Of a stretch of DNA of 64,000 nt, positions 4,901-28,900 are shown piece after piece. Every line of letters starts with the position of its first letter. The first letter of the stretch is position 1. The notes beneath the pieces are model-generated. The model worked only from the letters and a program-made list of their open reading frames with translations. It was not told the DNA's origin and searched no databases. Origin of the DNA: Raillietiella orientalis (Eukaryota). The DNA lies in contig JAYWIR010000005.1 of NCBI GenBank assembly GCA_036172245.1, positions 2,976,001 to 3,040,000 of the forward strand. The letters run 5' to 3'. A program made the position numbers and the translations under genes.

Positions 4901-7900
4901 TGAAGAGATCTTTCTCTCGTCAAGTGCAGAGTCATTTTCGAAATGAGAATGCTTTGGAACTCCCAATCAGTGATCCCACGTGGACAGTTCCAAGAGAAAG
5001 GCATGAGAAGAAAGATCGTATTCCAACATCAGACTCCTTCCTCAAGATGGATGTGTGTGGCAGAAAGAGCCATGAAAGGGTAAAACCAGAACGTTCGCCT
5101 TTTGCTGATCTTTTGGTATCCATTGGATGAGGCGACGTGGAGTCCAAGGACTTACTCCAGATTTTAGTTGCACCTATAGCAAGTGATACGATCCATCCAC
5201 GTGGATTATTACATCTACGGGGTGGGATCTGCAGATTTCTGAATTCAGTTTGTGTTCGTTCATTTACGATTTGGGGAGGAAGTGTGAGCAGACATCCATG
5301 GTAATCGAAACGAGTCCTTGAAATTACCTTATGGCGACTGGAACACTCCAGCTTAACATCGTTCCTAAACCATTCGTCAACCGGCGTAGGAACCCCTGCT
5401 ACTTGGCACCGTATTACCGCAGAATCGCCTTCGAGAACAGTGACATCTTCAGGGAGATTCGTGAACTTAGGCGGTGCAGTTTTCTGATCCAGTTCTTCGT
5501 GTGCGAGAAACCCTTGCAGAGATCATGATTCCCAATTCCCAACCTACGCTGTACAGTCACGAAGCAGCCGCTACGTGCCTCTCCCGCAGAGTTGAGAGCC
5601 ACGACTTCGTAGAATCCAGCGTCCTCCACAGTCCCCTCGTCTATAACAAGTGAGCATCTATCACCTTGGAAAAGCAACCGCATGTTCGGCGACTCTTGCA
5701 CCGGCTTTCCCTCGTGGTACCAAATCACCTTAATGGGATGTTGTTTCAGTAGAAACCACATGATCCTACCTCTGGCTCCGGCTGTCCGATGATGACACAA
5801 TCAAGTTGTATCCTTTTGCCTTCTTCAGCATGTACATCGTGAAGATTTACCTGCACACGAGGTCTTATCGGTTCCAGATCGCTTACAACCTCAGAATCAG
5901 AGGATTCCACAGGCAAACGACCCTGAAAAACGAGACACGAGATTTTTTTTTTCTTTTCTATCCACCAACAAAATCAATGCCACAAATACATCGACCATCT
6001 CGTACGTTGCATACGCATCCACAGCAGTGTTCTAAACACAAGTACGTGTTGTCACTTGCTCATTCGGCACAAAAGCTGCCTGATGCAGAGACTCATCATG
6101 TGTGGTTTTAATGACGATCCCTTTTTTATCCTACTTTGACACGCATAAAGGGCTAAGCAGGAAGTGCTCCGTGGCTAAGCAAACTAGAAGTGCCAGAACA
6201 CATCTCATTCATTTATCATTTCTTGCTTCTGTTGATTGGTGGTCATTATGCTTCCATTCAGTGAGCTCTCCGGGGAAGAAAAGAAAAAATCGCAACGAAT
6301 ATTCCCTCTTCATCGCAAGTTTGAATTTTGGGAGAATTCTTTCCGTTGGCTGCCATATTCCAGAGAATCGCGATAATGTAAAAGCGTGAGAAATGCAGTG
6401 CAAAAGATGCAAGGACTCGGTTGAGCGGGCTAGAAGAAGCGCTCGTATTTTCAATGTCCTCCCAATTCCTCAAGTGGCTGGCTGGATTCTAAGAGCCGAT
6501 CATAATGACATCGTCCGTGGGAGCGGTAGGCTCCACTGAAAAGCATCCATACCGTTTGCGTAATGCCCCGACAAGGGTGGTTGGTGTCCTCACAAGCAAA
6601 AAGCAATTAACGTTCAGTCTGCATTTGACGGAATTGTACTGCACGCCACGTTTCTTGAAGAGGGAGGTTTTGTATTGAAAAAAAAAAAAAAAAAAAGGAA
6701 CCGAAAAGCGGATAACCTCGGTGCAGCTAAGAGATTTACGTGCGAGAGCAGCGTGAAAGCAAACCATCATTTTTTTGATGACTGCAACAAGCATGGATCA
6801 ATCGCTGACATGATCTTTCATGGATCTTCCACAGCATTGCATCTTTTTCCATCCGCTTCTTTCGGATCTTTTCCTCTTTTTTTTTTTTTTTTCTGAGAGA
6901 AATTCTCCATAATCCCCGCGCATCTTCCTCGTCGCAGGCTAGCAGCCTTGCCCAAATATGGCTGTGGGGCTACAGCTGTTCAGGTGCTCTCTGAGAGAAG
7001 CTTTGCTTTTCTCCTCTTTTCAGAACTCTCGCTGATAACACCAGTAGGCAAAATCCGTGCCTTTTCTTAACAGTGTTCGGAGAAATACACGTATTCTCTT
7101 TTCGACACCGTTCCTCCATAACGTTGGTCTCCCACTACTGAGATATATTACCCATCATTTTCTAAAGCTTTACTTATCGTGATGATATGCAACGCCGCAT
7201 GGTGGAACACTTTCGAAGGCAGATTTTGACATTTCCTCAAATGCCACTCTGGTTTCTACCACCATCAATAATTACTGACTGTGGCATAATTATTCTTACT
7301 CTACTACATATCGTTTTTCAGGCTTGTGTAAGAATGCTGCATAAAAGTGATGGGATATTGCGAACGTCCATGTAGACTATTCCGGAAATGAACAACCCAT
7401 ACAGGGCGGTCACGTGAGGTTTTGCGCTAATAAGTAAAGGCTTAAGGAAATTATCGTGGAAACTCATTTTCAAAATGACTTTTAGCTATGGACAAATAGC
7501 GGGCGCCCATTACAGTGATTCAGTGTCGTTGTGTGTGAATCCAGTGACACTTTCCATGGTTTTCGGCTGCACGTTTACGAATAATGGACACGAGCTTTCA
7601 CAAAGACAGGATGCTAAACTTGACACAGGATCAAAGGAATCAAAGGCAGGGTCAAAAAGTGGCATAAATCGAAAGGAAAAGGCAGGTTCTGAGGTAAAGA
7701 CGACTAAGACATGAAACCATCCTGTGAAGAATGTCGCAGAACGACATAAGAGAAACACGAAAGCCTGCGGCGATTGGTTTGTTGATGCTGTTTGACCTTT
7801 TGGTTTCCACGGCCGTCTTTCATCCTAAACACATTCTTTGCTTTCCAAAAAGGTCACCTATCCTCAACTTGCTGTTGGTACGAAGGCTCCACAGAGTTGT

Positions 7901-10900
7901 ACGAACCGGAAACTTTCAAAATCAGTGATGGTCACTGAACAAACAAAATGCAAAATTTCAAATAACTTTGGAGTTTTTTGTCGCATTCTAAAGATCAAGT
8001 CAGATTCTATGGTATATATTCACGATTACTATTGCATGGTGTAAGACGAAAAGGACCATCGCTTTTTGCCAATGAAGAGTAGAATATTCCTTACTTCCAT
8101 TGATTGGATTTCATCACACACGTAATTAAAGGACGAGAATGAAGCGGAATGAATCCCTCTACAGATTCTTACCGGAGATGCATAGTGCCAGCAACCACGG
8201 AAATCAGTGGCACTTGAAAGCACTTGTCTTTTTTGCCAGGTACACCCAACTGATGCATTCCATCAGTGTTTGTGAGACGATTCTCCACTCAGCTATCCCA
8301 GTTGACTGTTTACATTTTAATCCGGGAAGATTGTAAAAAAAGAAAAAAAGGCTCATGATTTACCCGGGCAGCAGAGGTGATTCCAAAAAAGAAATCAGTT
8401 CTTTTGGCAAAGAGTATTTCATGTAAGGAAAATGAATCGTAAGAAGCATCACTTAAACGCTTATAGTTGATGAAAATCCTAAAATGTTAAGAACTCGAAA
8501 CATAGCTGCATTATGGCTTTAGTCCTCGACAAGTGTGACACCTCTGATCCACAGCTTCTTGTTCCGTATGATGTAATGGATGACATAAGTCAAAGGAAGG
8601 ATAGGAACTTCACAGGGTTGGGCATGACTTTTGCGTATTACTGCGCAGGGTTTCGTAGAAGGCAACCCCAACTTCCGGTAAGATCAAATCGAAAATGAAT
8701 CGGAATGAATTCCAAGTTTATTTTTTCCAAATAAACTTGGAATTGGGACCGTGAATCCATGTGCGACTTGTGCGGAATCGACTGGTGAAAACTGATCCTT
8801 ACCTTTACACATACGTTAGAAGAGCAGTATACTTCCCCGGCGCTGTTCTTAGCTACGACGGTGTATGTACCTGCATACTTTGCAAATGCTTCTAGTACAC
8901 TCAAAGTAGCTTTCTTTCCGTCAAACTGCGTCTGCAGCAATGAATGTCAGGAAAGTCCAGCAAAGACCGATAACATACCTTCAAATCCCTTCCTTCTTTT
9001 AGGGGCTTTCCATTGTGAAGCCAAAATATTTCTGGAGTTGGATTGCCATCTACAATGCACTCCAAACGAAACTTCTGTCCGGATCTGGCCATCACATTGC
9101 ATAAGGGCTGAACAAAAGAAGGCAGCACAAATGGAGTCTTCGCTGTTCCACATTGGAAAGTTTCTTAACAGTATCGTAGTATTTCAACTTACGCAAGACA
9201 ACAACATTAGAGGAACTCTGTGCAACGCCCATCATGTTGCACGCCTTTGCCACATAGTAGCCTTGATCTTCTAGGGATATTCTGTCGAATTTCAGGGAAC
9301 AGAGACCATTATTGTACATTATATTGAAGTAGGGCAGGTGATCAATGCATTTAGCATTTTTGAACCACTGCACCACGGGCAGAGGGTTCCCGCTAACCAA
9401 CCCATTTATCTGACACTCCTCTCCTTCCGTGACACAGATGGACTGGAGAGATTTAACGAATTCCGGAGCGACCATTTCCTCGTGAGGATGAGTTTCTATG
9501 TAGAAGAATCAGGAACCCAAATATGAAATGAAAGCAATGCCGACCTTTCACTTGTAAAACAGAGTTCGTCTCTGCAACTCCGGCTATATTGGTAGCTCTG
9601 CAAGTGAACATCCCGGAGTCATCAGGAAATGTCTCCTCGATGGTGAGCTGGCATAAACCATCTTGAAAGGATCGGAGGTAATCGGTATTGTTTTGGATGA
9701 GGACACCATCTTTCCACCATGTTATGGCAGGAAGGGGATCTCCTGATACCCTGGACGAAAAGGGACATAAGAGGGATGCACAACAGATCTGTTAAAAGGA
9801 ATCTTATGGGAGAGAATCAGAGAAAAGAAGCTGCAGCCGTGAAACTGAAGGGATGCTCAGAATCATTGCAATGATCTCACCGGCACTGAAGAGTAATCTT
9901 CATCCCCTCGTCAACATTGGAATCGTGAAGAGGTTGGATGAATTTCGGTGCCTGCAACTTATTTCTCTCCTCATAGGTTTCGTAAATGGAGTCGACCTTC
10001 TCAAGAATTTTCGTTTCTTCAACTCGTAATAATTTCAAGTCATCTTCTGCATTTCTTTCTGAGGTGCCCGAGGGGAAGATCGCTGCCTGAACACCAATTT
10101 CCGATTCAGGCTGCTGAACCGATGCAGCTGCATCGTGCATCAGAGGCTTTTGGGTCTGCGTGAACGCTTCGGAATCTCTTTCCTTGGCTAATACGTCCGT
10201 TTCTCTGGAGTCCGGCTTGACCGTTTGAGTGGAGACTTCTTCTTCTTGGAGATGAGTACTCATCCCAGTTTCGTAAGTTCTGGGGCGGAGTGTTTGTGTG
10301 TGGGCCTCGCTCTCAGAGAAGCAGGTGGATACTTCCATCTCTTGGTGCAGGGGACGCGCGGTTTGCGTGACGGCTTCCTGTTCTTTCACTGCCACAGTCA
10401 CCTCGTTTTCTCTCGTTTGAGGCTTCCAAGTTTCCGTGGAAACAGTGACTTGCCTCAGTAGACTGGAAGTTTGGGTTTGCATGTGTTCGGAGGCCGCTTC
10501 TTGTAAGGTCTGGGAACAGATATCGCTGGTAGAGGTCGCGGCGTACGCGTGGACATCGATCAGTTTCGGTCTGATCGTTTGCGTCTGCACTTCGCATTCG
10601 TTCGCGACCGTGCTCGTCTCTTCCTCTTGAGAGATGGGTCTCGATGTCTGCGTGTGAACGTCCACCTCAAGGCTTCCTGCCAGCATCTCCTGTTCTTGAA
10701 CTTCCGGTTTCGCTGTCTGGCTGGAAGATTCTGATTCCATCGTCTTCGCCGTGACCTCACGCTCGAGCTGTATGGGGATCAGCGTTTGCACGAAAGCCTC
10801 GGAGGACTGAGACTGCGCTGCCACTTCCCTGTCCTGGAGAACAGGCTTGGATGTCTGAACGGAGATGCTGTGCTCGTCGACGAACGCAGTTCCGATGGAA

Positions 10901-13900
10901 GCTTCGAATTTCGGGACCTTCTTTAACGGCTCTTCGGCAACCAATCCCGCTGTCTGAGTTTGTATTTCATGAACAGGGATCGAAACTGAGGTTTCCACGT
11001 CGGAAGAAACGGTCTTCATCGTCTGAGTGAAGACATTTTGGTCTGGGACATCTGTGCTTAAGCCCGCCTCTGCATGCTGAAGAATTGCTGTCTGCTGATC
11101 AGAATCCTGTTTGGAGGTGGCCTCCATAAACGTCTCAGCATCGCGTAACCGCAACTGAAAGGCAAATGAAATTTTTTCTTTCACTCCAGCGTTCTCGATT
11201 CCAGGAGCACCGGCGATCGCTCCACGTCAAAACAGAGACATGAGATGGAGCGAACGTTGATAAGGAAAGGACATCCATTACCTTGGCAGCCATCTCCGCT
11301 GCTTTGGCCAGTTCTTGCTGTTCACGTAGCAGCCTTGTGTGCTCTTCAGCGGCCCGTCGAGACTCCTCGGCAGCGGCCGCTGCGCTCATAATCGCTTCCA
11401 TCTCAGATTTGGCTTTCTCCAGAGCTTGTTCGATTTCCAGTTGCTCCTGGTGGGAAGATCATACGAAAATATTCCTCTTTGTAGGTCTCACCTTCGCTTT
11501 CATTTCTGTGGCAGCCTCCGCTTTCTTCCTCACCTCTTCTGCCGCTAGTGCCGCTGCACGGGCGGCGGCGACTTCTGTTTTCATGCTGTTAAGACTCTCT
11601 TCGACTTCGATTTGTTCCTAATGAATCATCTGGATTCCAATCTTCCCTGTACGTACGACTCACTTTCTCTTTTTTGGAGATGTCAGCTTCAGCGACCTTC
11701 CTAGCCTCTTCGGCTTCCTCTGCCAAAGTTCTAGCCGTGGCTGCATCCTTCCTGGCGGAATTCAAAAGCAGCTCCGCTTCTCGTTTTTCCTTAAAATGAA
11801 AATCCAGCATCAGTGTGCAAACTTGAAAACGGAAAGATCCATGATATCGATTCAGGGGGAAAGACAAATCCCACTGTCAGATTTAGAATTATGAACAATA
11901 ACTTCAAGAAAAAGAATTCTTCATTACTCCTGTGCTCCTCAAAGTTATTACCTAAAGACCATCATAAAAAATTCAAAGCTTCTCAAATGGAAGATGAAAG
12001 AAGCATGGGAAAGAAAATAGCAGAATGAGCATGCGTGTTTGCTTAGCATTTGGACCAAAAAGCAACCAATCAATGAGAAGATGGGAGTTCTTTTTAGAAC
12101 TACATTGATGGGATGAGGAGTTATCTGTAATGGAGGCAATTGCAGCATTCCGGCTGCAAAGAAGTTTAGATGACTGAGATGCACAACTTTAGTGCATGTG
12201 GCAGGTGAGGACCAACTGAAAAGGCTCAGCGAAGGACACTTGATCCCAAAGAAACAAGGGCGATTTCGGTTGCAGCAAGAAGCGAGTACAGAAGTGGAGA
12301 TGTACCAGAAAAGCAGCAGCAAACAGACCCTACTCTCTAATCAGGAAATGATCATATGAGACCAGAAATTAATAGGGCATCAAAGGCAGCCAGGATGCCT
12401 GGAGTCTGAGGCTACTAGGGTGCCCACATCACATCGGAAATGAACCTGAAATTTGTCTTCTGAAGCTGACCGCGCCAACGCACTTAGCATTCGTGATTCC
12501 AAAAGAATCTTTTCACCTTTTCCAGCCTGTCTCTCTCTTCTTGCAATGACTGCATGTTTGTAATTAACGACAAGAGCTCCTGGTGCATCGTGTGAAAAGA
12601 TTCGATCATTTCCTTGTTTTGCTGCCTTATTCCCTGAACCTCGTGGACCTTGTTGGTTCCAGCTGGACATCACCGTTGCTCAGATCTGCTCGCATTCAGA
12701 ATGTGCTTACCATTTCTGAGTTGCTCCGAAAGTGCTTCAATGGCCGCCAACCTCTGATTTTGTGCTTCGTTCCCTTCACTAATAAAGTTATTGAGTTCTT
12801 GCAGAAGTTCTTTGGCCTCTGAAGTGGTTTTGCATGTGGGGGACCTTCTTGCTACTTTGATCAGCATTTTGCTTCCCTCACGTAACCAGTGCTCCGCCTG
12901 TTCGATGTCTTTTATCGAACACTGTAAAGTCCTCTTACTTTATTTAGCTGTTCAAAGAAGTCAACAGAGGTGTTGGCGAAATCTCTGGATTCCTTAATTT
13001 GCTTTTCCAAGGAGGAGTATTTGTTATTTAGTTCTGCCACCTGTTTCTGGACAGGAGAATGAGAGTCATCTTGTCCGGTCGGCAATCTCTGAACTCTGCT
13101 TGTCAGCTGTTGAATTGATGCCCCCGCATTCTGCAAACAAAGAGCTGAGGGTTAATTTAGGATGATAGATTTTTAAAGAACAGAAGGACAGCATTTCTCT
13201 TGGAATGGATGCAGGATTTCCCAGAAATGCCCCAAATTACCGAAAGTTTGCTATCGAGACTATCGATAGCTGTGGAAACAGCGCGGGACGTTGCCAAAGA
13301 ATCTCCATATTGAGTGCGGATGTTGAAGAGATGGTTGGAAATATCTTGTAGGGTCTTTCCAAGTTCTTTGGACTGCAAGTCAAGTTCTGAGACTTGAAGC
13401 CTATCTTTGATGCATCTTTCCAAGGATTCAGTTTCTTTCATCCAGCTTTGGTGTGTTTCATTCCATAATCTTTGCATCTTGTTGATGTCCTGCTGCGCCG
13501 CTTGAGGAGGTTCCTTTGAACAAGATACTCAGCATAGCGAAAAAAAGTGCGAAGCATTGATCTCATGATGTTTTTAACGTGAACGTTGCCCAAGGAAAAT
13601 TTAGCTTTTAAATGGAGTCGATGAAGAAAATTTCAGACCTGCTGTTTCAGTTTCCTAATGATGTTTTCCAGCTTCTCTTGCTCTTTCGAGAAGTGTCTCT
13701 TCCAGTTTGTTTTCTCACTTTCATTCATTTTCAGAACGGATTCTGACACCACGGAGCTCTCAGATACTTCGAGGGATCTTTCCTTTATTTTTCTCACAAT
13801 TTCCTTCATCTGAAACACGCATTTTTTTAAACCATCTTCGCGGGAAGCTTCTTACCTCGCTGATGCTTCTAACACCATTCTGAAGGCTCTCGGATACATC

Positions 13901-16900
13901 CTTATAATTGAGTATTTGCATTTGAAAATCTTCTAGGCACGATGCAACTTCGTTGATGTGCTCCTTGCATCTGTCCTCCATGTAGCCTTTGGAATCTACA
14001 GATCGCATGGGAGATAATGACCTAAGAATCCAAGCGATTTTTTTTTCTAAATGCTACCTTTTTCCAGCAACTGTTTCGCATTCCTCAAATGAGACTGAAA
14101 CTCAGAAACCAGCTGGCTGGAGGCACTGGTGATGCTTTGCAGCAATTGGTTTAGCTCTCTCAGAATCGAGTCGCTTTCCTCCGATTTTATTTGTTTTGTT
14201 AGGGGGTACATTCCATCTTTCATCTCTCCTTCTTTTCTTCTCAGCTAGAAAACAAATACGGAAGGATACAACGGGCCGGTTTCGATCTGCTGCTTCTTTC
14301 GAAATCGAACCGTAAGCACTCTCAGATGGCGGTTCCATGGGAAAAAATCTCCTGGATACAATCATTTTGGTACTCGTTATTGTAACCCTATAATTCTGTC
14401 GGCCTGTTGCGAAGCAAACTGATGTATTCCGAACATTCCGTCGCATGAGGGTCGCATCCCCAAATCATTTCCGATAACTCTAAGGAAATTCTCGTTGCTC
14501 ATGTGAACACCAACTCAACTACTATGGATAAAAGCTGTAAGAAGATGACTGGAATGCAGTGGTTAAAAATGAGGAATCGCAACGGTTTCGTCGTCTTTTT
14601 TTGTAAAGTAAATTCAACATTGGCAATAAAGATGAAAAGTGTTCTTTTAGGCATGACTGTTCTGTCCAAAAAACTGAAGTCCAAACTGACTTTTTTGCTG
14701 AGACAGATTCTTCGCATCCCTGGTTGTATCAGAAAATGCCGAAGGAAAAATCTTTGACAGCAGAATGAGCAAAAGTTCTCTATGACTTATCACGAAAGAG
14801 ATTCTGGGAAGCTTTCTTTCAGCTTTTCCATTTGACTCCTTTTCGTCCAATATCACTTCACGAGAAAGAAGTGGGCACAACGGGAACACTCCTTAAATAG
14901 AAGCAAAGAAGTGGATCTTCTGAATAAACAAGGAAATTCAATTCCTCGTATCAGAAAATTCGAACCCATCCAGTTTTAAGCATCTTACACTAGTCTTCCG
15001 GAGAGCACCGGAGACCGATTCTTCTGGAGCAAGCGTTCTGGCTGAAGAACCCCATCTCGACTTTATTTCATTGGATGATTTCAGTATCGCCACCAAAACC
15101 ACTGCTTCTTAAATCTCCAAAGCAGACTGTTTTAACACATGACGATGCTTTCCTATGAGCTGCTACAGCTCTAAGAGTGCACGGACCCAGAATTAGCTTG
15201 TGCAAGCCAATCCGAGTTTGCTTGTTTCCATTTTTTTTTTTTTCTCTGCTGCAGCATCAAAGAGTTGAGACCAAGGAAAGAATAGATACGTCCGCTTGCT
15301 TGAAGCATCTGTCGAATACCGAAGAAAAACTTGTAAGTTCCAAACTGCACATCTGTGGCTTCTCACGAAATGAAATCGAAAGGCTAAATGAGATTCCAGC
15401 TGAGAATTTCGATTCGCCCTTATTTACAAAAGAGAATTTCATCGCACAGCAATTGATGAGAACTGAACGCCATCCGTAGCAGAAAAGGCATTGCCACCAT
15501 TTTCAAGAATTCCTGCAAATATCACTGGGATTGTTTTCTTTTAGAAGGTCACGGAAAGTTTTGCTGCTATCGAGGAGGGTTGGGTTCACTTTCTAGAAAG
15601 CCTTGCTCCTTCCTTGAGTCTTTCATGCTGCTGAAATCTGCTCTGAGGCGCAAGAGGTGCCATTTCTTGTCGAATACAGATCTTGCGTCAAAGGTGCCAT
15701 CACGTGGTGCTCCAGAAAACTGATATCGGGATAATTTGCGCTGCTGAGGAATAAACGTCAGCAAAGCACATCGAAATTGTGCTGATAAGAAGATTCCGCA
15801 CGGAATATCCGTGGAAATGCAATCACAGCATCCTGAAATCACTGCCCTGCCTACCGGGAAGCCCTTGTTATTCACTCGTTCGTCAGCTACCGCGGAGGCC
15901 ACGATGGCTCTGCGAGCGGATTGGAATCTTGAGGCGAACATGTAAGAAAAGGTGAATCCAAGAGCAATGTTAGGTGAGTTAGACGTCAATATTCAAGTGT
16001 CACTTAATGACGATTAAAGACTTGCATGAGGCTCCCCCAAGGCAAGTTTTCTGGGACTTGAAACGATCGTACTTGCAGCAGAAAAGGACTTCCACATGAT
16101 CCGAACAAGGAAGAAATAGACAAACTGTTAAGGAATCGTACAAAATATTGCGACCAATCTACGGATGGAGCTATCGTTACCGAGAAACCAGGCACTTGAG
16201 AGCTGCAGACATTTGCCTTTCGAAAGAAATGCTTTGTTCGTAAACTGTTATGCACCCGCAGAGATTCACATGGTGGCATCTGAAAGACCCGAAGACTACG
16301 CGCTGTCATAGCTGACTTTGATCTGAGAAAAAAACCACATCGCGAGTTCCGGACAGTCAATACCGAACGATTGATCCATAAGAACAGACTTGCAGTTTGA
16401 TTCGCTGAGACTTTTTCCATTTTACCCTAAAGAAGAGATTGGTGGGCCTTCCCGTGTGGTCATAAAGGACTCGTCGGAAAGTTGACTTTTTCGTTCAGGC
16501 ATTGCGTTAGAAGACTTACCTCTTCCCATTCTGATAGCAGTCTTTTCCATTGGGTTTGCACTTCCTTCTTTTGCTGCTTCTCTCGATCGATTGCGGCTTG
16601 CCTCTCCTTTAAGTCCATCTTATAAGCGATCCTATCTTCGATAATTGATTTAACTCGTCTCCGGCAATCTTTCACCTCCAAATAGGGATCTACCTCCTTC
16701 GATAGCTCTGGGATGTTATTTACCTTTCTTACGATCTGTTTCCTACCTTTTCGCTTTCTGCAAAGAAATTGTGCGCTGCACTTTCCAGGTGCGCAAAGCT
16801 GTTTTCCATTCTCTGCCATTCCCTGCTCAACTCATCCTCCCCAAGTGTGACGTCGGCATCTGTCAAGTGAGCTTGCATTCGCTTGACTTTTTCGTCGTAC

Positions 16901-19900
16901 TCGTTCAGGACGTGGAAGAAATCGGCGTAGCACGTGGACATCTGGATCCTCGCTTGCAAGGCTGCTTCCAGTGCCCTCAGATGCTGCGTCAGTTCTTGTA
17001 TCCTTGACCGCAGTTCCTCCTGCTCCTCCTGGGCCTCCATGTCCACCGAGGACAGCGCATGCCCGAAATTCGTAATCGTAGCCTCTTTCGTCTGAATGGA
17101 CGTAGGACTTTCAGTTGTGGTGCTTCTTCGTACCTTCAGTTCGTTTTCCATCTGCTTGTGCAGGTTCGTGAACTCCAAGACCTCCTTCAGCGTTTTTCCC
17201 ATGTCCTTGTATTGGTGAAGAAATTCGTCGCCGATGCGGACCATCCACCTTTCTTCCTCGGACAGATCGGAGATCAGCTGCTGGACTTGCTTCCTCTGCC
17301 TCGTTGCTTCCTCTTTGTGCACAAAGCACATGTTCTTGATCTCGTTGTAACGCCTCTTCAGCGTGGCCAGGTTTTGGCGTATGCCCTGCTCGCAAGACAT
17401 CGGTACCTGAGTTGCGAGGGATGATATCTCTCATCTTACTTCCAATCCTGATGGTTCCAGAGAGTTGAGTAATTCCTGACCTTGCTCGATCACAGGGAGA
17501 ACGGAAAGATCACAGGCTTGCTCCATCTGTTGGTGCAGCTTACTTAGCTGCTGGACCGATAAGTTGCTTTCCTTCAGTTGTACTTCCATATGGTCCATTT
17601 TGGAAGATGCCTGAAAATGAACTAAAATGGCAGTAGAAGGAATTTTCCTACCATTCTGGAATTCGTGTAGTAATTGATAGCTGTTAGAAGGTGTTTCCGT
17701 CGAGACTCCACTTCTCTAGAGAGATCATCGATCTGCTCAAGCACTCTCATGACTCTTCTGCATGATCCATCTTCAGTGAAGGGAGTCTTCTGGCGGAACT
17801 CTTCTGCAGTTTTCAAAATAGAACGTGCTTTCTTGGAAACATCCTTAAACGAGGGCAACTGATTAGAAATCAAAGAACTGAGAGAATGCATCTTTGTCTC
17901 GAAGAATGAAATTGTAATCTCATGGAAGTGGGAGATGCGTACGAGAGCGCAAACTCGTCATAGCATTTCTTAGCAAAGCTCTTCACCGATACAGGTCGCC
18001 GAAAGAGAGAGACTTTTCTGGGTGAATCTCAACAGCTCGTATTCTTATAAATTTTGTAGGTTGAGTGTGCCACTCCAAAAAGCCTCTTTAAAAAAAAGTG
18101 AAGTTTTGTCGTTGCTCTTTAAATTGGATATGAAAAGCCGTTTTACCAAAGAGTTTCCATTCGCGATACGCGTTAAGAAGGTGATTAATGGTTAGCGATT
18201 CTTGAAGAGCCAAGAGTTCCTTCCAAGATGAAAGCGCTTGCTTTGTGAGCGTTCATTGATAAAAGAAGGGAATTTATTGAGAAAGAGAAAAATTTGCCGA
18301 TTTGCATGTGACTTACTTCGATTTCAATCTCGGACTTGCCGAGATCGTGAAGGATGTTTTCTGCATCTTCCTTGGAAACTCCATAGTTGAACTTCTTAAG
18401 GAATTCGTTTCCTTTGGTAGCAACCCAGTTTTCTATCCCTTCAATGTCTTGGTGAAGCCGATAGAGGGCAGCAGCGTGCTCAAGGAAACTTTTCCTGCGC
18501 ATCCACATTCGTTCCAAAGACTTACGCCTATCGTGGATTTCCTCAAGCCATGACTGCACCAAACTGCACGCTGGAAGATACTCTTAGCTTGTTGCTTCAA
18601 ACTGGTCTCCTTACCTTTCTCTACAGAAGGTAGAAGATTCTGTGGCCGCGAATCTACGGTCCCTAATTTCTTCAGCTTGTCAAGTTTCGTCAGCAGCCCT
18701 TGACCCTCTTGAAGTGCACGCAGCAGAATTACTAGTACCTTCCTCTTCAGATCATTGATTCGACCCAGGGCTTCATTGATCATCTCCATGTCCGAAGGCA
18801 AGGATTCTCTTTGCAGCTCCTTCTGAGCGACCCTCATCAAATCATCGAATTGCTGTTTTTCTCTAAAAGTATTGCAAGAGAGATTATGGGTTACTCAACC
18901 ACATAGCAATTGAAAAATGTTTCCTTCCAGATTCATCTGATTGATTTTTGTGTTTTTGTTTACAATTACCAATCTTTAATTGTTCTTGTTATCTGTTTTT
19001 GCTAGAGAGCGATGACGGATGGTTACCATGGTAATGTCCTATTTCCGTTTTCGATCTTCTCAATAAAAACGTACAAGTTCCGTTTCCAGAATAATAGGTA
19101 CAACTTGGAGACTCTGAGGAAGTCGTCTTGGTGGTCTGTGGCTTATTTTCTCCGTTTTCGAGATGGTTGCAGCACTCTTCTGGGTCTCCATATGCTGGAT
19201 GGGGTTCTTGCCTTCTCTCTTCATCCGACGATCCTCCGTGAGTGCATGAGTCTCTTGGCTTGCCATTCCTTGCTTTGGGGAGTGTCCTGCAAGCATCTCT
19301 GGATTGTTCGCTTCCCATCTTGAATCCGCCCTCTGCGCAAAAGTCCTGTCCGATCTCTGAACCGGTTCGGGCATGACCCCCCTGGTTCCCGGATTTGGTT
19401 GAATCCTGACAGAACGTCTTTCGAGATTTCACGCGAATACGAGTTTCGTTAGGAAGGTGGTGCTCGGATCTCGAGAGATCTTCGTCAGACGCTTTCACTC
19501 TAATCACCTCGTTGACGTGGTCGTCCTTCCCTCGGGGGCAAAATCTTCCTCATGCTCAGAATCGCCTGACTTGGGGATACTCGATGCCACTTGAGGAGAT
19601 TCGAGATGCTCTCGTGGTGGTGCGAACCAAACGATCATCAAAAGGCTCATAACGCTTTCTGCCCATTCTTTGTTATTTGGAAACCAACAGCCCATAGTAG
19701 AGGATTCCAGCTACCGAGAGGCCCACGCTCCCATTCTAATGAATGGTTGTGTCCATATCGATGAAATGTACAGTTAGGGTGTGTTCATCACCGCAGCACA
19801 TCGAATCACAAAGGAACCACTTTAGCCGCCGCTGCATAATATGTGAAGCTTTCCATAACATTTTCCTCCCAAGTAAAATTGCCATTCCAAAAGGTATTGC

Positions 19901-22900: not shown

Positions 22901-25900
22901 TACATAGTCACACCAAATACTCGTTCCTTATTAATTCACAGATAGAGTTCCTGAGCAGAAAGACATTTTAAGTGATTCTTAAAGATTGGAAATTTGTGCT
23001 TTTTTATGAGCACAGTATGTCATTAATTGTGACTGCACTCTTGTGAGCTGCAAGACGAGACAAGGACGGTACTCACTCACCATCCCTCGTCTCTTGTTCT
23101 CCGTTTTCGAAATGCCTTTTCACGAACTTTGACCACCTCAGTCGGGAGGAATTTCCAAAAGCGCAAAATCATCGAGCCATATGAACTCATGAAACTTATC
23201 GAATCATCTGTAATTCATCTGCATCCCGGAACAATAATGTGCTCTGTTGGCAATTTTCTGGAAGAAAGCATGAGCCATCTTCAAGATGATCCGAAACTCT
23301 CATCCATGACGAGCTTGTTGGATATTCTAGTTGGTAACACTCCAAGTCACAGTACAGTACAAGTTTGTATAACTGAGGGAATACGTTCCGTGCTATACAA
23401 CTCTGCGCTGTGCCATCCCTATGGGTTGTACATGTGATTGTATTGATAAAAGATACAAAATGTTCCCTAAACTTTATGGCATTAGAATATTTACTGTGTC
23501 ACTTTAAAATGGAAGGACAAAAATTGGAAACGTTTCTGATTTAGGTAAAATTAGGAAAAAAAAATCTCTTGGAGTTTTCTAGAGTTTTATCAAATGGAAC
23601 AATCCTACAGCTTCGTGTCTGTCTTCAGCAACGAGAACATCTCCATCTTCTCGTTGTTGGAAGATGTATCAAAAATTTGGGTGGAATGGAATTTGGCCCA
23701 CTCACCTCCGCATCGTGCTCTTTTAAACAGCAGACGCTGTGCTCCGCGAAATCGAAACCCATCCGAAGCGTTGTTAGGAGACGACGGACCCCTGTCCTCA
23801 CTTTTTCGTCTGACCGCACAGGTGGTCCACCGCATTCAAAATTTGCAGGGAAAACCGCTCGAACGGAGAAGCGGGTGTTCGACTTCTCTCCGGTCGCGCA
23901 ACACGCAGCACACATCTACGTGTGGCGTACGCAAGAAATAAAGGATTCGGTTACAGAAATGACCATTCGACCTCGCACTTGACGCGTTTCGCATTTTTCG
24001 TATTTCCTCGTTTCTTCAACGCTTGGGATCGTATGTTTCGTTCCTTTGCCCGTTCCGTGACGCAACCACACAGAGCACGTGTGTGGCGCACCGCGTCGGA
24101 AACACCAAGTCTTCCGCTGCCAGCAGTTGGCAGTCACTCCCATCACAGCGGACGGAGGAAGATCATTGAGGGCTCTAGAAGGCGTGCCAACCAACTCCGA
24201 GGGGAATTCGTCCGAAGACTGAGCTCTCGAGTTGGTGCCCTCGCCGATCGGCTGGAAGGCAATCCCGCTGTAGCATTAACCCTGTCCTTCAGGCGATGCA
24301 TGTGGAATCTGTGAGACATTGACGTTGAAAAATTAACTGCGAGATCTTTCCCGCAGCACCGATCATTAACTATGGGATTGCAGGAACGACTTCAGAAAGT
24401 ATCCGGGAGTTCGCCCCACCTTGCTCGTGAAGTGCCTCCAGAGGAAATTCGACTCCTGTGGAAACTCCTCTGCGAACCCGAGGGAGATATCCTGCAGGAG
24501 TCGACCTAGAGGTTCCAGATAGCCGTGTTGCCTCTTGTTGCAGCACTGTTCGCCCTCAGGGTAAACAATGGCAGCAGCCAACAGGCATGGTGGGGGGTGC
24601 CCTGCAGCAAGGCAGGAGTTGAGAAACTCCTGGGCGGATGCAAGACGAGCGAGTTAGTGAACGCTACCACTCATTCCTGGGCGAAGGGGCTCCTCCGGTG
24701 GATGACCCGCTTGGTGTGCCCTTCGAAGGACTCACGGTCTCTTCCCTGAATCCGGACACCTCCGTGTTCCCGCTCCGTTGGAAACGGAAGGTCGCGCAGT
24801 TTCTGCACTGGGGGCTCCGCAAGTGCAACCAGCTCAGGCACCTGGTTCCGCGACTGTTTGAAATGAGGGGCGATAGAATCGTTCCCGCATCTTCTGTTGG
24901 ACTGGGGGACTTATGGCGGAGACCGGCCTCGGCGCTCCGCAACCCGGAAGACACCAAGAACTTGCTGCGACTGCCCTCTTTCACGTAAGGCAGGCTGACG
25001 GCAGTCGCCGCGATTGCAACGATCTCTTGTGCCTCCGTGCCATCGTCTCAGCCTGCTCCTTGGTGGAGCCTCGTTCTTAGCAAAGGGAGGCAACCAGCAT
25101 GGGAGCTGATCGAGACGGTTGCAAGATGGCCTCACCTGCCATAAGAATTCATGAGACAGATCGCCTCCATATAGAACCAAGGAAGGATTTATGCCGAGGA
25201 CGTCCTACTCTCCTGTATTTTTCTATTGAGTTTTTGTCTTCTTCCTCCGTTCCCTACTTTTCTAGAAGCCAGCCTACGTGCTAGGGGTCATCCCCAATTA
25301 ACTTTTCTTGTGGGCATCTTTTGTATTCAGGAGACCTTGTTCCCCTGATTTATCGTTTTTGTATTTTTACATAAACGTTCTGGCGTGACCGGGTACAAAC
25401 CAGAAAGCATTTTAGCAACGAATTTGAAAACAGAAATAATTTAGGGAAAAGTAAATCCTATCTGAAGACTGAGATTTCCATACAGGTGAAATAGTAACCT
25501 CTAGAAAAAAATCGTATACACGGAGGAACATGGCGATGAAGATTTCATGAATTGGAGATGGTTCTGCTGATTTCCTCTACTGAGTCATCCAGGTATTCCA
25601 AGTAACGCGTCCCATAATGGCTTGTGTATTCATTTGAGGACGTGAGTGGTTTTGCAAATCATTTGTCATCAGTAGCGAGGATGAGAAAACGAGAAATCTT
25701 GAAGCAGGGTGCCCATAATATAAGCACAAATTTGGGATCGAAACGAGAAACGCCATTTTACCAGACAGTCCGAAGGCCATCTCGATGTGCATTTTTCAGT
25801 TTAATTAGAGGAAATTAATGCTTGTTTGATTGCTCGTCGGTGTAAAGGGATGTACGCGACCAATGTAAATCTATTAAGTTTTGTTGGAGCTGGTAGCGGT

Positions 25901-28900
25901 AAAAGCAATCACAAAGATGACGAATAGGAGGAACCCAAGCGAAAAAGAACAAAATACCTGAAGAAAGATACATTCTGATCCAGAATAGATTTTCTTAGCT
26001 GGAGATGGTCGTTGAGTTCTTTCCACGCTTTTCCTAAGCTCTCTGCCATGGCAGCATAGACCTCTGCCTTTGGTTTTTGACTTACTATAAGTTGATCAGC
26101 TTCTTGAAGCAACTCTTCTACAGGGACTCGACGTTTCTAAATAAAAAAAAATGCCAAATCAGACTTTCGCAACATCGTACGAGAATGAAATCTCCCGTCA
26201 TCTCTCAAGACATCAAAAAACACCATTAATACAGAATTATCATTCAAAAAAGCACCACATAAGTGCTATATTTGCTTTGTGATCATTTCAGCATTCTTTT
26301 AAAAAGGTCGCTTTTTTCTTTTTTTTATTCATCATTCTAGTCCAAACCGCTAGTACTCGTATGAAATTGGCAGAAACTCCAGTTCTTTTTATATAGGAAC
26401 TGTTCTTGAAGAATCATGAGAGATCAATGTTACTATAGGGAATCATTACGTGATCATGGAAAACTCAACATCCTAATCTTTGTAGGAGAAGCCCCTTTTT
26501 TTTTTTCCGGCCTATTTCCGAAGTAAAAGCTTTTCATTCAGCAGTCAATTCCTCTGCAGTCAATCAGATGAACCCATGATTCAACAGGTGTACAGCCCCC
26601 AGGTACGAAGGAAAATGTTTATGAGACAGATAATGGTACTTTGTTCGGGAGCATTGTTTTCAGGAACGATCTCACCCTTTTCCCGATGATTTTCATGGCC
26701 ACATACATACATGCATGCATATGTGTATCTGAGGAAGTCAGCGCATCTTGATTTTGGCTGCCTTGCAACATCAGAGATGAATCAGGGACTGTCATCTCAG
26801 AAGAAAAGCTTGTACCTGTTAAGAGGGGAAGAATTCTCCTTCGTCCTTCACCTCCTCTTATGCTCCAGGCAGCTTCGTTATCCAAGAAATCAAAGGCAAT
26901 TCGGACCCAACACCCTTTCATTTCCATTGTCCTGTTGTACTGCGTGCTTTGCTAACGTGCATCGCTCATCCTTCGAGCTGAGGTGTACAGAGATTCTGTA
27001 TTTCATTCTCCCAATTTGGCTGCTACTGCGCGACTGCTTTGGTAGGCAAGAAATCAAACGGTAACCTCGTCCGCTATAGCATGCGACCTGAATTTATTGA
27101 CGTACGTGGGTCTTGCACAAGAGACATAAACTGTGACCCGACAAGAACCACTAGTGTTACCGGTTTACGGCGACAGGAAACACGCTGAAGATTCACCGTC
27201 AAGAAAGCATCACGTATCTCGTTGCCGGAATGCAAAATAGTTCAGGAGGCTCCCACAATAGGGAGTGGCCGTTTGCAATGAAAAACTCATGGACCACGCT
27301 TAACCCTTCCATTTCTTGAACCGTCCTAAGCTATATGCGTATAGGCTCGCGTCTCAAGACGTGCCTGAAAGGCATGAGCTCCTCCTTGCTCGCATTAAAG
27401 AGAACAAATGAAGACAACGTTGTTGTTTATGAGAGTTGTGACCCATCCACCCAAGAGAGATCGTCATGTTCCCAGACGAGCAGGCACATTCCATGGAAGG
27501 ATACGAGGAACAGCCTAGACGTGATGGTGCAATGAGATCCGAAGAACGCTTGCATCAACGATTCCCTCCCTTTTATAGAGAATACTACGCAAAGACGCTG
27601 CGGCCAGGCCGTGGTAACGGCCCGTGGAACCAGAGCTCTCAGGAACCGCAACCGAAGGACGTTTCGCTACAGAAGAAGGATTTAACCACGTGACTCTCGC
27701 GCAACGAGCTTGTCTAAGGGAGGATCCTGGGAGATGGAGAGGAAGACGCATCGCTTAACCGCCATGGTTTGTGCTCCCGTGAAGCTCTTGATGGATGTGA
27801 ACATTGCGTGCAATGGTCCCTCTATGAAGTTCGAACCAGCTCAGCGGTCTTCTTGGCGCAGCCTACCGGCCTCGCGTCCGCAATCCCAAAAGATACGCGC
27901 CGAAGCACTTGAAACAAATGGATTGATGCTTAGGCATTCTCCGGGGGGGAGGACAGGAGTGGGGCTACTACTTGGAAAGATTTTCGTTCCTCTTGGCCGA
28001 AACACGGCAAGAACCGGAGTTGTTGGCTCATCACGTAACCTGCTTGATTTTCGAGAAATCATTTTTTTGCGCATGTGATCTACTCAAACTGAACTACCAT
28101 CTCGAAACGAAACTGGGCAATCCATTAGCTTGGTATTCTTCCGTAGGCCGAATGGAAATCCTCAAGAACCACTGATCGGTTGCTCTTAATTTGCTCTCTG
28201 ATCCGATGTGCAATTTCTCAAGCGAGCTTTGGCAGCTGTGGGAAGCGCGCTTCTGCATTAGGTGCATGCGTGTGGGTGGATGGGAGAACCTAAGAAGAAT
28301 TCTTCTATCCGTAGCAAGGGAAGAACTGCTGAATGTCATTGCGATGCGAGGAAAGTGGGAGCACCGTCAACCAGCTTCGCCTCGTGTCCCTCCTACAATC
28401 TCGATAAAGCCTCTGCAATCCTCTAGGGGGTATTCAACTTCAGCAATGTTCACGTTAACAGCGTGCATGCAAATCACTTCAGCCATCACATGCTCCCATC
28501 AGAGGTCACCTCATGTCTTCGCTTGTGTGCTTCGATGGTAGAGAAGCATCAAGAAGGAAATGAACCGTCGTGAAGGGCGATTTGCTCCAGGAGCGCGCGA
28601 ACACGTGCCGCGATTCCCGAAAGGAGATTCAAGACCAGCCGCCACTATCCCGTGGATTGCTACAGAGGCAGGAGCCGGCGAGGAGCACAAAGGCTCATAT
28701 TCCAGGTTTTGAACCTCTTCCAAAGGGAGCGGAAATCGGCTAAATTCCAGAGCTCACCCCACTTCGCTGCATAGAGGGAATTTCCTGCGTTCAGCTCCAG
28801 AATACCGGATGCCACAGGGCCGAGAGCAGTAAGGATGCAGAAGGCTGTGAGTGGGTGACACCGTAGTGACCAGGGTTCTACTCGCATCATGCCAGGAATG

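Follow-up and report, generated by a model that had tools for sequence, protein, structure and literature searches.

Raillietiella orientalis contig JAYWIR010000005.1 (assembly GCA_036172245.1) was analyzed over a stretch of 64,000 nucleotides (positions 2,976,001 to 3,040,000; hereafter the window), whose minus strand carries a gene for what is very probably zormin, an invertebrate titin-family muscle protein, as judged by domain order and synteny rather than by a tree. One exon of this gene encodes a long, regular array of glutamine-threonine (QT) motifs, which probably serves as a multivalent docking segment for the dynein light chain LC8 (DYNLL/Ctp). The zormin/titin-like host proposed in an initial annotation of the sequence fits the order of its domains (spectrin repeats, helical region, immunoglobulin (Ig) domains) as well as the presence of kettin-type exons downstream. 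Within the 100 kb downstream of the window, a long run of Ig-plus-linker exons occupies the same strand (approximately C5:2,938,000-2,899,000), and an open frame of 1522 aa, which contains several nearly identical tandem repeats (~80 aa each) and has 2 QT pairs and no TQT, runs downward from G000:C5:2,880,566 (L033, minus strand). We take these exons and this repeat frame to be of the kettin/sallimus type; the names zormin and kettin for parts of the locus are likewise our presumption. Drosophila Zormin and human CCDC141 combine spectrin repeats, a helical or coiled-coil region and Ig domains, and lie directly upstream of sls/titin (kettin/sallimus) on the same strand, as seen here, and the available excerpts on these proteins mention no LC8 array (PMC12198301; PMC12657953; PMC7039190).

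The array exon reads as a single open frame of 424 codons (11154-9883, minus strand; its translation is P0001), entered in phase 0 after an AG acceptor and left in phase 2 through the GT donor at 9880 (Table 1). It joins the Ig exon at 9750 in frame, with no stop, across a 130-nt intron (9880-9751). Because the exon encodes the first Ig strands and shifts the phase, skipping it would be expected to disrupt both Ig domain 1 and the reading frame. Two in-frame internal CAG sites (10833 and 10509), of moderate pyrimidine content, are candidate splice sites that could shorten the array. Residue numbers below are those of P0001, position 0 is the column of the anchor glutamine, and coordinates are window positions.

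Table 1. Features of the putative zormin gene, in the direction of transcription.
Position	Strand	Feature	Evidence
25969..26136	-	N-terminal spectrin-repeat exon	Pfam Spectrin E=0.00093, under cut-off; ESM Atlas spectrin clusters 0.95
16735..17430	-	Spectrin-repeat-like stretch	Pfam Spectrin E=0.0036, under curated cut-off
11282..11792	-	Three Ala/Glu-rich exons upstream of the array; probably one long helix or coiled coil	Translations; helical state judged from composition
9881..11154	-	Array exon (P0001), including the C-terminal helix and first strands of Ig domain 1	Open frame; AG acceptor (phase 0) and GT donor (phase 2); splices in frame to 9750
10081..11109	-	Entire array (residues 16-358), made up of 16 QT-type A and 13 cryptic B sites in a 12+11 register	Anchor and profile analysis
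10948..11109	-	Short block at the N-terminal end, with A sites 21, 44, 67 and B sites 33, 56	Unit alignment
10909..10947	-	13-residue gap, residues 70-82, with two prolines; sole long linker and candidate hinge	Hinge role by analogy with KANK1
10081..10908	-	Main block, residues 83-358: 13 A and 11 B sites, linkers of 3-5 residues	Site map
10432..10512	-	Junction with two 13-aa steps (215, 228, 241); full TQT at the expected B position	Anchor map
9955..10053	-	Amphipathic helix, residues 368-400, just past the array; possible weak coiled coil	AlphaFold2 block pLDDT 64-75; best heptad phase 6/11 a/d hydrophobic, as a raw count
9543..9948	-	Ig I-set domain 1, interrupted by an intron of 130 nt (9880-9751)	Pfam I-set E=2.7e-15 on the downstream exon; splice frame
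9191..9478	-	Ig I-set domain 2	Pfam I-set E=6.1e-16; best PDB matches are titin Ig domains

The array contains 16 QT-type anchors, termed A sites. Fifteen of these match the initial annotation exactly: nine TQT (residues 44, 67, 169, 192, 228, 264, 287, 310, and 333), two VQT (100 and 123), two SQT (146 and 215), one TET (241), and one VQA (356); the sixteenth, QQT at residue 21 (window 11094), lies 23 aa ahead of the residue-44 anchor. T/V/S-Q-T is thus found at 13 of 16 sites, the deviants being QQT, TET, and VQA. The steps between anchors are, in order, 23, 23, 33, five of 23, 13, 13, and five of 23, and the autocorrelation of BLOSUM scores (300 shuffles) reaches z=11.4 at lag 23, 9.8 at lag 46, and 8.2 at lag 69, in agreement with the 23-aa register and two 13-aa spacers described earlier. 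TQT occurs 9 times vs. a shuffle mean of 0.56 (maximum 6 in 20,000 shuffles), and QT 17 times vs. a mean of 4.4 (maximum 12). By column, Q at 0, T at +1, and T/V/S at -1 are each present in 15/16 A sites, D/E at -4 in 12, and V/I/M at -3 in 10. Of the flanks attributed to the motifs, the acidic residue at -4 is frequent (12/16), and x(K/R)P follows 9 of the 16 anchors.

The units are old, and their anchors and register are maintained by selection. At fourfold-degenerate third positions, pairs drawn from the 12 regular units are identical in 62 of 226 comparisons (0.274, where 0.268 is expected). Amino-acid identity between units, in pairs that are not independent of one another, is by contrast 1.0 at +1 and 0.83 at 0 vs. 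0.29 overall. It is because synonymous sites between units are saturated that retention of the anchors and of their spacing, already noted in the initial annotation, can be ascribed to selection. Tandem Repeats Finder reported five rows in the window, none of them within the array exon; a recent tandem duplication of DNA or an assembly artefact was rejected as the origin of the array, in view of the missing DNA-level tandem repeat and the saturated third positions between units.

The linkers between anchors had been described as diverged, which proved incorrect, as they hold a second conserved motif in all 12 regular units. When these units are aligned, +8 is D/E, +11 is V/M/T/L/A, and +13 is T/A/V in 12/12, and +12 is S in 6/12. 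The resulting motif, centered at +12, lacks glutamine and has an acid at -4, a hydrophobic residue at -1, and a small residue at +1 (TST, VST, MST, LST, VTV, and others). This pattern, whose residue classes were chosen after inspection, is present in 12/12 units, whereas the best offset under the null has a mean of 1.5 and a maximum of 5 (20,000 trials). Scanning the linkers with the A-site profile gives z=4.4 at +12 and z=4.8 at +14 (5,000 linker shuffles), with depressed odd offsets, as expected for strand-like alternation; +12 is preferred as the center because the invariant acid then falls on -4. A thirteenth such B site (IGT, residue 88) lies 12 residues ahead of A100, and all 13 carry D/E at -4.

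Together, the A and B sites number 29 and follow one another in steps of 11-13 residues, save for one of 21. If each is assigned an 8-residue footprint, the linkers between them measure 3 (n=12), 4 (n=13), 5 (n=2), or 13 residues (n=1), such that 27/28 fall within 3-5. When only the A sites are counted, the linkers are mostly 15 residues long, and the short-linker geometry thus depends on including the B sites. None of the 15 prolines in residues 16-358 lies within the 232 footprint residues (of 343); 10 are at A+4, 3 at B+4, and 2 in the long gap.

The array segment is predicted to be disordered. It has a net charge of -31 and an overall FoldIndex of -0.035, with positive FoldIndex values only in windows starting at 26-76. 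AlphaFold2, run on the single sequence, returned coil with a predicted local distance difference test (pLDDT) score <50 over nearly all of residues 28-365, flanked by helices at 2-30 and 368-400. Supplied with a 3-row repeat alignment, it returned no strands (predicted TM-score 0.11), and these two runs, both on shallow input, weakly exclude a beta-roll.

LC8 recognition has been summarized as a set of rules: a Q anchor, mid-sized residues at -1 and +1, a polar residue at -4, a large one at -3, a non-aromatic one at -2, P/D/E at +2, and no internal proline (available excerpts of PMC6607443). As coded here and applied to the A sites, the anchor rule holds (Q in 15/16), -4 is polar in 15/16, and no site (0/16) has an internal proline; at the same time, 11/16 violate at least one coded rule, leaving residues 67, 100, 169, 228, and 356 as the rule-clean anchors. 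Singly, the A sites should therefore bind weakly, and motifs this mediocre by the published rules would need cooperativity in order to bind. The segment is best read as a disordered, acidic, multivalent LC8 client that is likely dimerized cooperatively through individually weak sites. Features in keeping with the LC8 reading of the initial annotation are the QT anchors, acidic -4, beta-branched -3, proline-free motifs, predicted disorder, predicted helices at both ends, and an LC8 gene in the genome, together with a complex model that lends weak support.

The genome has a conserved LC8 gene (G000:C2:1,396,606-1,396,903). As this gene contains an intron, complex modeling used a stand-in, an intact relative (L019) that is identical to it at 82/89 residues. 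Two copies of residues 158-187, which hold one A and one B site, were modeled with four copies of LC8. The score was 0.49 (runs 0.50, 0.49, and 0.40) vs. 0.04 for the best of three controls, with a run-to-run contact agreement of at least 57% and a partner pLDDT of at least 59; the verdict was weak support. In calibration, the pass mark was reached by 51/78 solved and 2/108 mismatched pairs. Other light chain genes were also encountered. A second Dynein_light family gene, divergent from LC8 and presumably of the axonemal DNAL4 type, lies at G000:C29:1,739,429-1,739,719 (L003). LC8-like genes (L016-L022; 77-92% identical to the query exon) were present in contigs of prokaryotic assemblies, one contig having three copies with the same protein sequence, and are most likely eukaryotic contamination. 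A scan of viruses for intact LC8 found a 48% fragment only.

Several points weigh against an LC8 client. Many TQT peptides fail to bind LC8 (PMC6607443, Table 1, in the part available). Among the 16 A sites, neither P/D/E at +2 nor K/R at -3 occurs (0/16 each), and there is a hydrophobic residue at +2 in 7, a small one at -3 in 6, and an aromatic one at -2 in 3. None of the B sites has Q at position 0 (0/13), and several carry 2-4 acids, which the same excerpts rate as unfavorable (PMC6607443). The conserved K/R(+3) and P(+4) fall outside the LC8 footprint, and the B register is ambiguous, given that +14 scores no worse than +12. The complex model returned no interface, its score does not bear on occupancy of the B sites, and peptides and disordered chains fall outside its calibration, in which scores of 0.60 or less accounted for passes by only 5/78 solved pairs and for all 4 passing mismatches of 180. 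LC8 bound to TQT is a textbook solved pair, and the pass may reflect likeness to such solved complexes. According to the accessible portion of another study, AlphaFold false positives are mostly motif look-alikes (PMC12057147).

Among known LC8 systems, the closest likeness is to the L2 region of KANK1, described in a preprint available in excerpts (bioRxiv 10.1101/2025.07.16.665182). Peptides in isolation failed to bind, but cooperative binding of 7 and then 15 LC8 dimers was seen; the anchors used include glutamine-less ones of the types TST, IGC, VNT, and VMA, the linkers are 3-4 residues long, and the product is a hinged rod of ~53 nm. In both cases a long linker, disordered by prediction in the present array, connects a helical or coiled-coil region of a cytoskeletal adaptor to folded C-terminal domains, and both have individually weak (here putative) sites that include glutamine-less anchors, short linkers, and one long linker as a hinge or candidate hinge. 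In contrast, KANK1 places 15 dimers on ~250 residues, in which canonical motifs are nearly absent and a periodic repeat has not been described, whereas the present array has up to 29 sites, a strictly duplicated 23-aa unit, alternation of QT and cryptic motifs, a muscle titin-family host, and binding that is predicted. The geometry of KANK1 would be matched if the B sites count. The Dyn2-binding region of Nup159 is also a row of QT anchors, and its linkers of 4-5 residues (bioRxiv 10.1101/2025.07.16.665182) correspond to the spacing of the array's two 13-aa steps; however, this nucleoporin has five strong sites with stacked LC8 complexes, as opposed to 16 mediocre QT sites with cryptic sites between them (excerpts of PMC10046861). 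ASCIZ/ATMIN shares many TQT anchors and an acidic disordered region, but is a transcription factor with 7-11 sites, irregular linkers, and a heterogeneous occupancy used for LC8 sensing. Its 3-residue and long linkers give heterogeneous binding (same excerpts, PMC10046861), so short linkers are no guarantee of a uniform rod. The array would work like an LC8 array of the KANK1/Nup159 type, of which it is a putative member.

A mechanism can be proposed from these comparisons. In the zormin-type muscle protein, the array links the helical region to the Ig chain. Each 8-residue site would occupy one groove of an LC8 dimer by beta-strand addition, and two parallel zormin chains would thereby be zipped together. 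Binding would be nucleated at the QT sites, and linkers of 3-5 residues would let the intervening weak sites fill cooperatively, as in KANK1. A coil of ~12-16 nm would then become either a beaded ladder of 16 dimers or a hinged rod (~18 + 85 nm) of 29 dimers, the latter taking 3.5 nm per dimer (x 29 sites = ~102 nm). That all 29 sites bind, with the anciently duplicated two-site unit (QT plus cryptic, 12+11) building a hinged LC8 rod of ~100 nm, is a tentative extension to which we give less than an even chance. LC8 loading would extend and stiffen the link and thereby set the distance from the spectrin region to the Ig domains. At 10 of the 16 A sites, T(+1) lies in a T-x-K/R context, and it may be speculated that a basophilic kinase acting on this residue could release LC8.

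An unlikely alternative to LC8 docking is that the segment is an elastic, acidic, disordered titin-family spacer with no stable partner, whose T/S/Q/K/P columns are phosphorylation sites (T-Q and T-x-K/R) that tune its stiffness. Predicted disorder, the net charge of -31, and a titin-family locus that also holds the 1522-aa repeat frame are all in keeping with a spring, as are T-Q or S-Q at 12/16 A sites and T-x-K/R at 10/16. Yet a spring needs no exact register kept past synonymous saturation, no strand-like alternation, and no confinement of prolines to linkers; T(+1), at 15/16, is better kept than T/S before Q (12/16), and the neighboring repeat frame has almost none of these motifs (2 QT, 0 TQT).

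Strand addition is a mode of binding shared by Tctex1-type light chains, filamin Ig repeats, and the PDZ and LIM proteins of the Z-disc. The array could accordingly be a tandem beta-zipper for one of these partners, whether as the sole ligand or in alternation with LC8 at the B sites, which we consider improbable. Such a partner would account for B sites without Q, for the strand-like alternation, with its scores at +12 and +14 alike, and for conservation of K/R(+3) and P(+4) beyond the LC8 footprint. Against it, the QT anchor is the LC8 signature (excerpts of PMC6607443), a full TQT occupies the B position at residue 228, and three B sites have P at +4; the last two observations suggest that A and B sites do not differ in kind. 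Finally, self-folding of the 12+11 unit into a beta-roll or solenoid of two strands, with Thr/Val/Ala in its core and Gln residues forming a ladder, would suit the exact register, the two alternating strand-like segments, and the conserved turn-like prolines, but is very unlikely, as 3-4 acidic columns would be superimposed if the units stacked in register (net charge -31), only 6 of 343 residues are glycine, AlphaFold2 gave no strands in either low-powered run, and no PDB match was found at E up to 10.

Elsewhere in the gene, the three Ala/Glu-rich exons directly before the array, which follow one another and have 41-56 codons each, share a loose repeat pattern. Judging from their translations, they probably form an exon-duplicated long helix or coiled coil; the single exon of these that was scanned had no Pfam match. 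Of four Ig-region exons scanned, three scored above the Pfam I-set cut-off. Introns of this gene are often very short (~35-50 nt; e.g., window 5,500-5,800 and 11,280-11,800), so that exons are read through in six-frame translations. Similar translated stretches at window ~24,700-25,100 and at G000:C5 ~2,949,400-2,950,000 suggest a shared repeat or mobile element in introns.

Searches for orthologues were blank. Among proteins up to ~2000-2120 aa, a range that leaves out full-length zormins, no homologue was found for P0001 (0/6870), the spectrin exon (0/2175), or the Ig exon (0/15); HMMER over 1.84 billion representatives gave 0, the ESM Atlas gave no usable match, an exact look-up gave 0/3, and neither of the 2 loci examined (L005 and L006) out of 6 weak ones in a metagenome scan was an orthologue. 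Because even the well-conserved Ig exon matched nothing, these blanks do not indicate lineage restriction. P0001 had no Pfam or NCBIfam match above cut-off, and no sequence in the PDB matched it up to E=10. In searches for paralogous arrays, it matches only itself. A pattern for four units of the QT register finds only the array exon, and is uninformative, as a reversed control gave 4 matches too; one for three TQTs has 1 match vs. 7 control matches and thus no statistical weight. Separately, a zinc-finger-like exon, with QT anchors clustered irregularly behind it, lies at G000:C8:4,903,791-4,906,906 (L038; G000:C8:4,905,291), which we take to be the probable ASCIZ/ATMIN orthologue. In the literature, searched through titles and abstract openings with most subscription papers out of reach, no link of LC8 to zormin, sallimus, or CCDC141 was found, and in the available part of PMC12657953 the terms LC8, DYNLL, and dynein occur 0 times.

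LC8 is known to stiffen disordered linkers in the nuclear pore and, according to a recent preprint, in KANK1; the authors of the latter ask in the available excerpts whether other large assemblies use it (bioRxiv 10.1101/2025.07.16.665182). The placement of zormin has been described as poorly characterized (excerpts of PMC7039190). If the array is an LC8 client, LC8 would be brought into muscle architecture and zormin would gain a mechanism. The strict alternation of canonical and cryptic motifs would also offer a clean natural setting in which to ask how cooperativity depends on weak sites and on linker length. Should the more tentative 29-site rod prove true, its valency would be ~2x that of KANK1, and LC8 would be a stoichiometric structural subunit as well as a sarcomere length ruler, possibly switched off by phosphorylation of T(+1).

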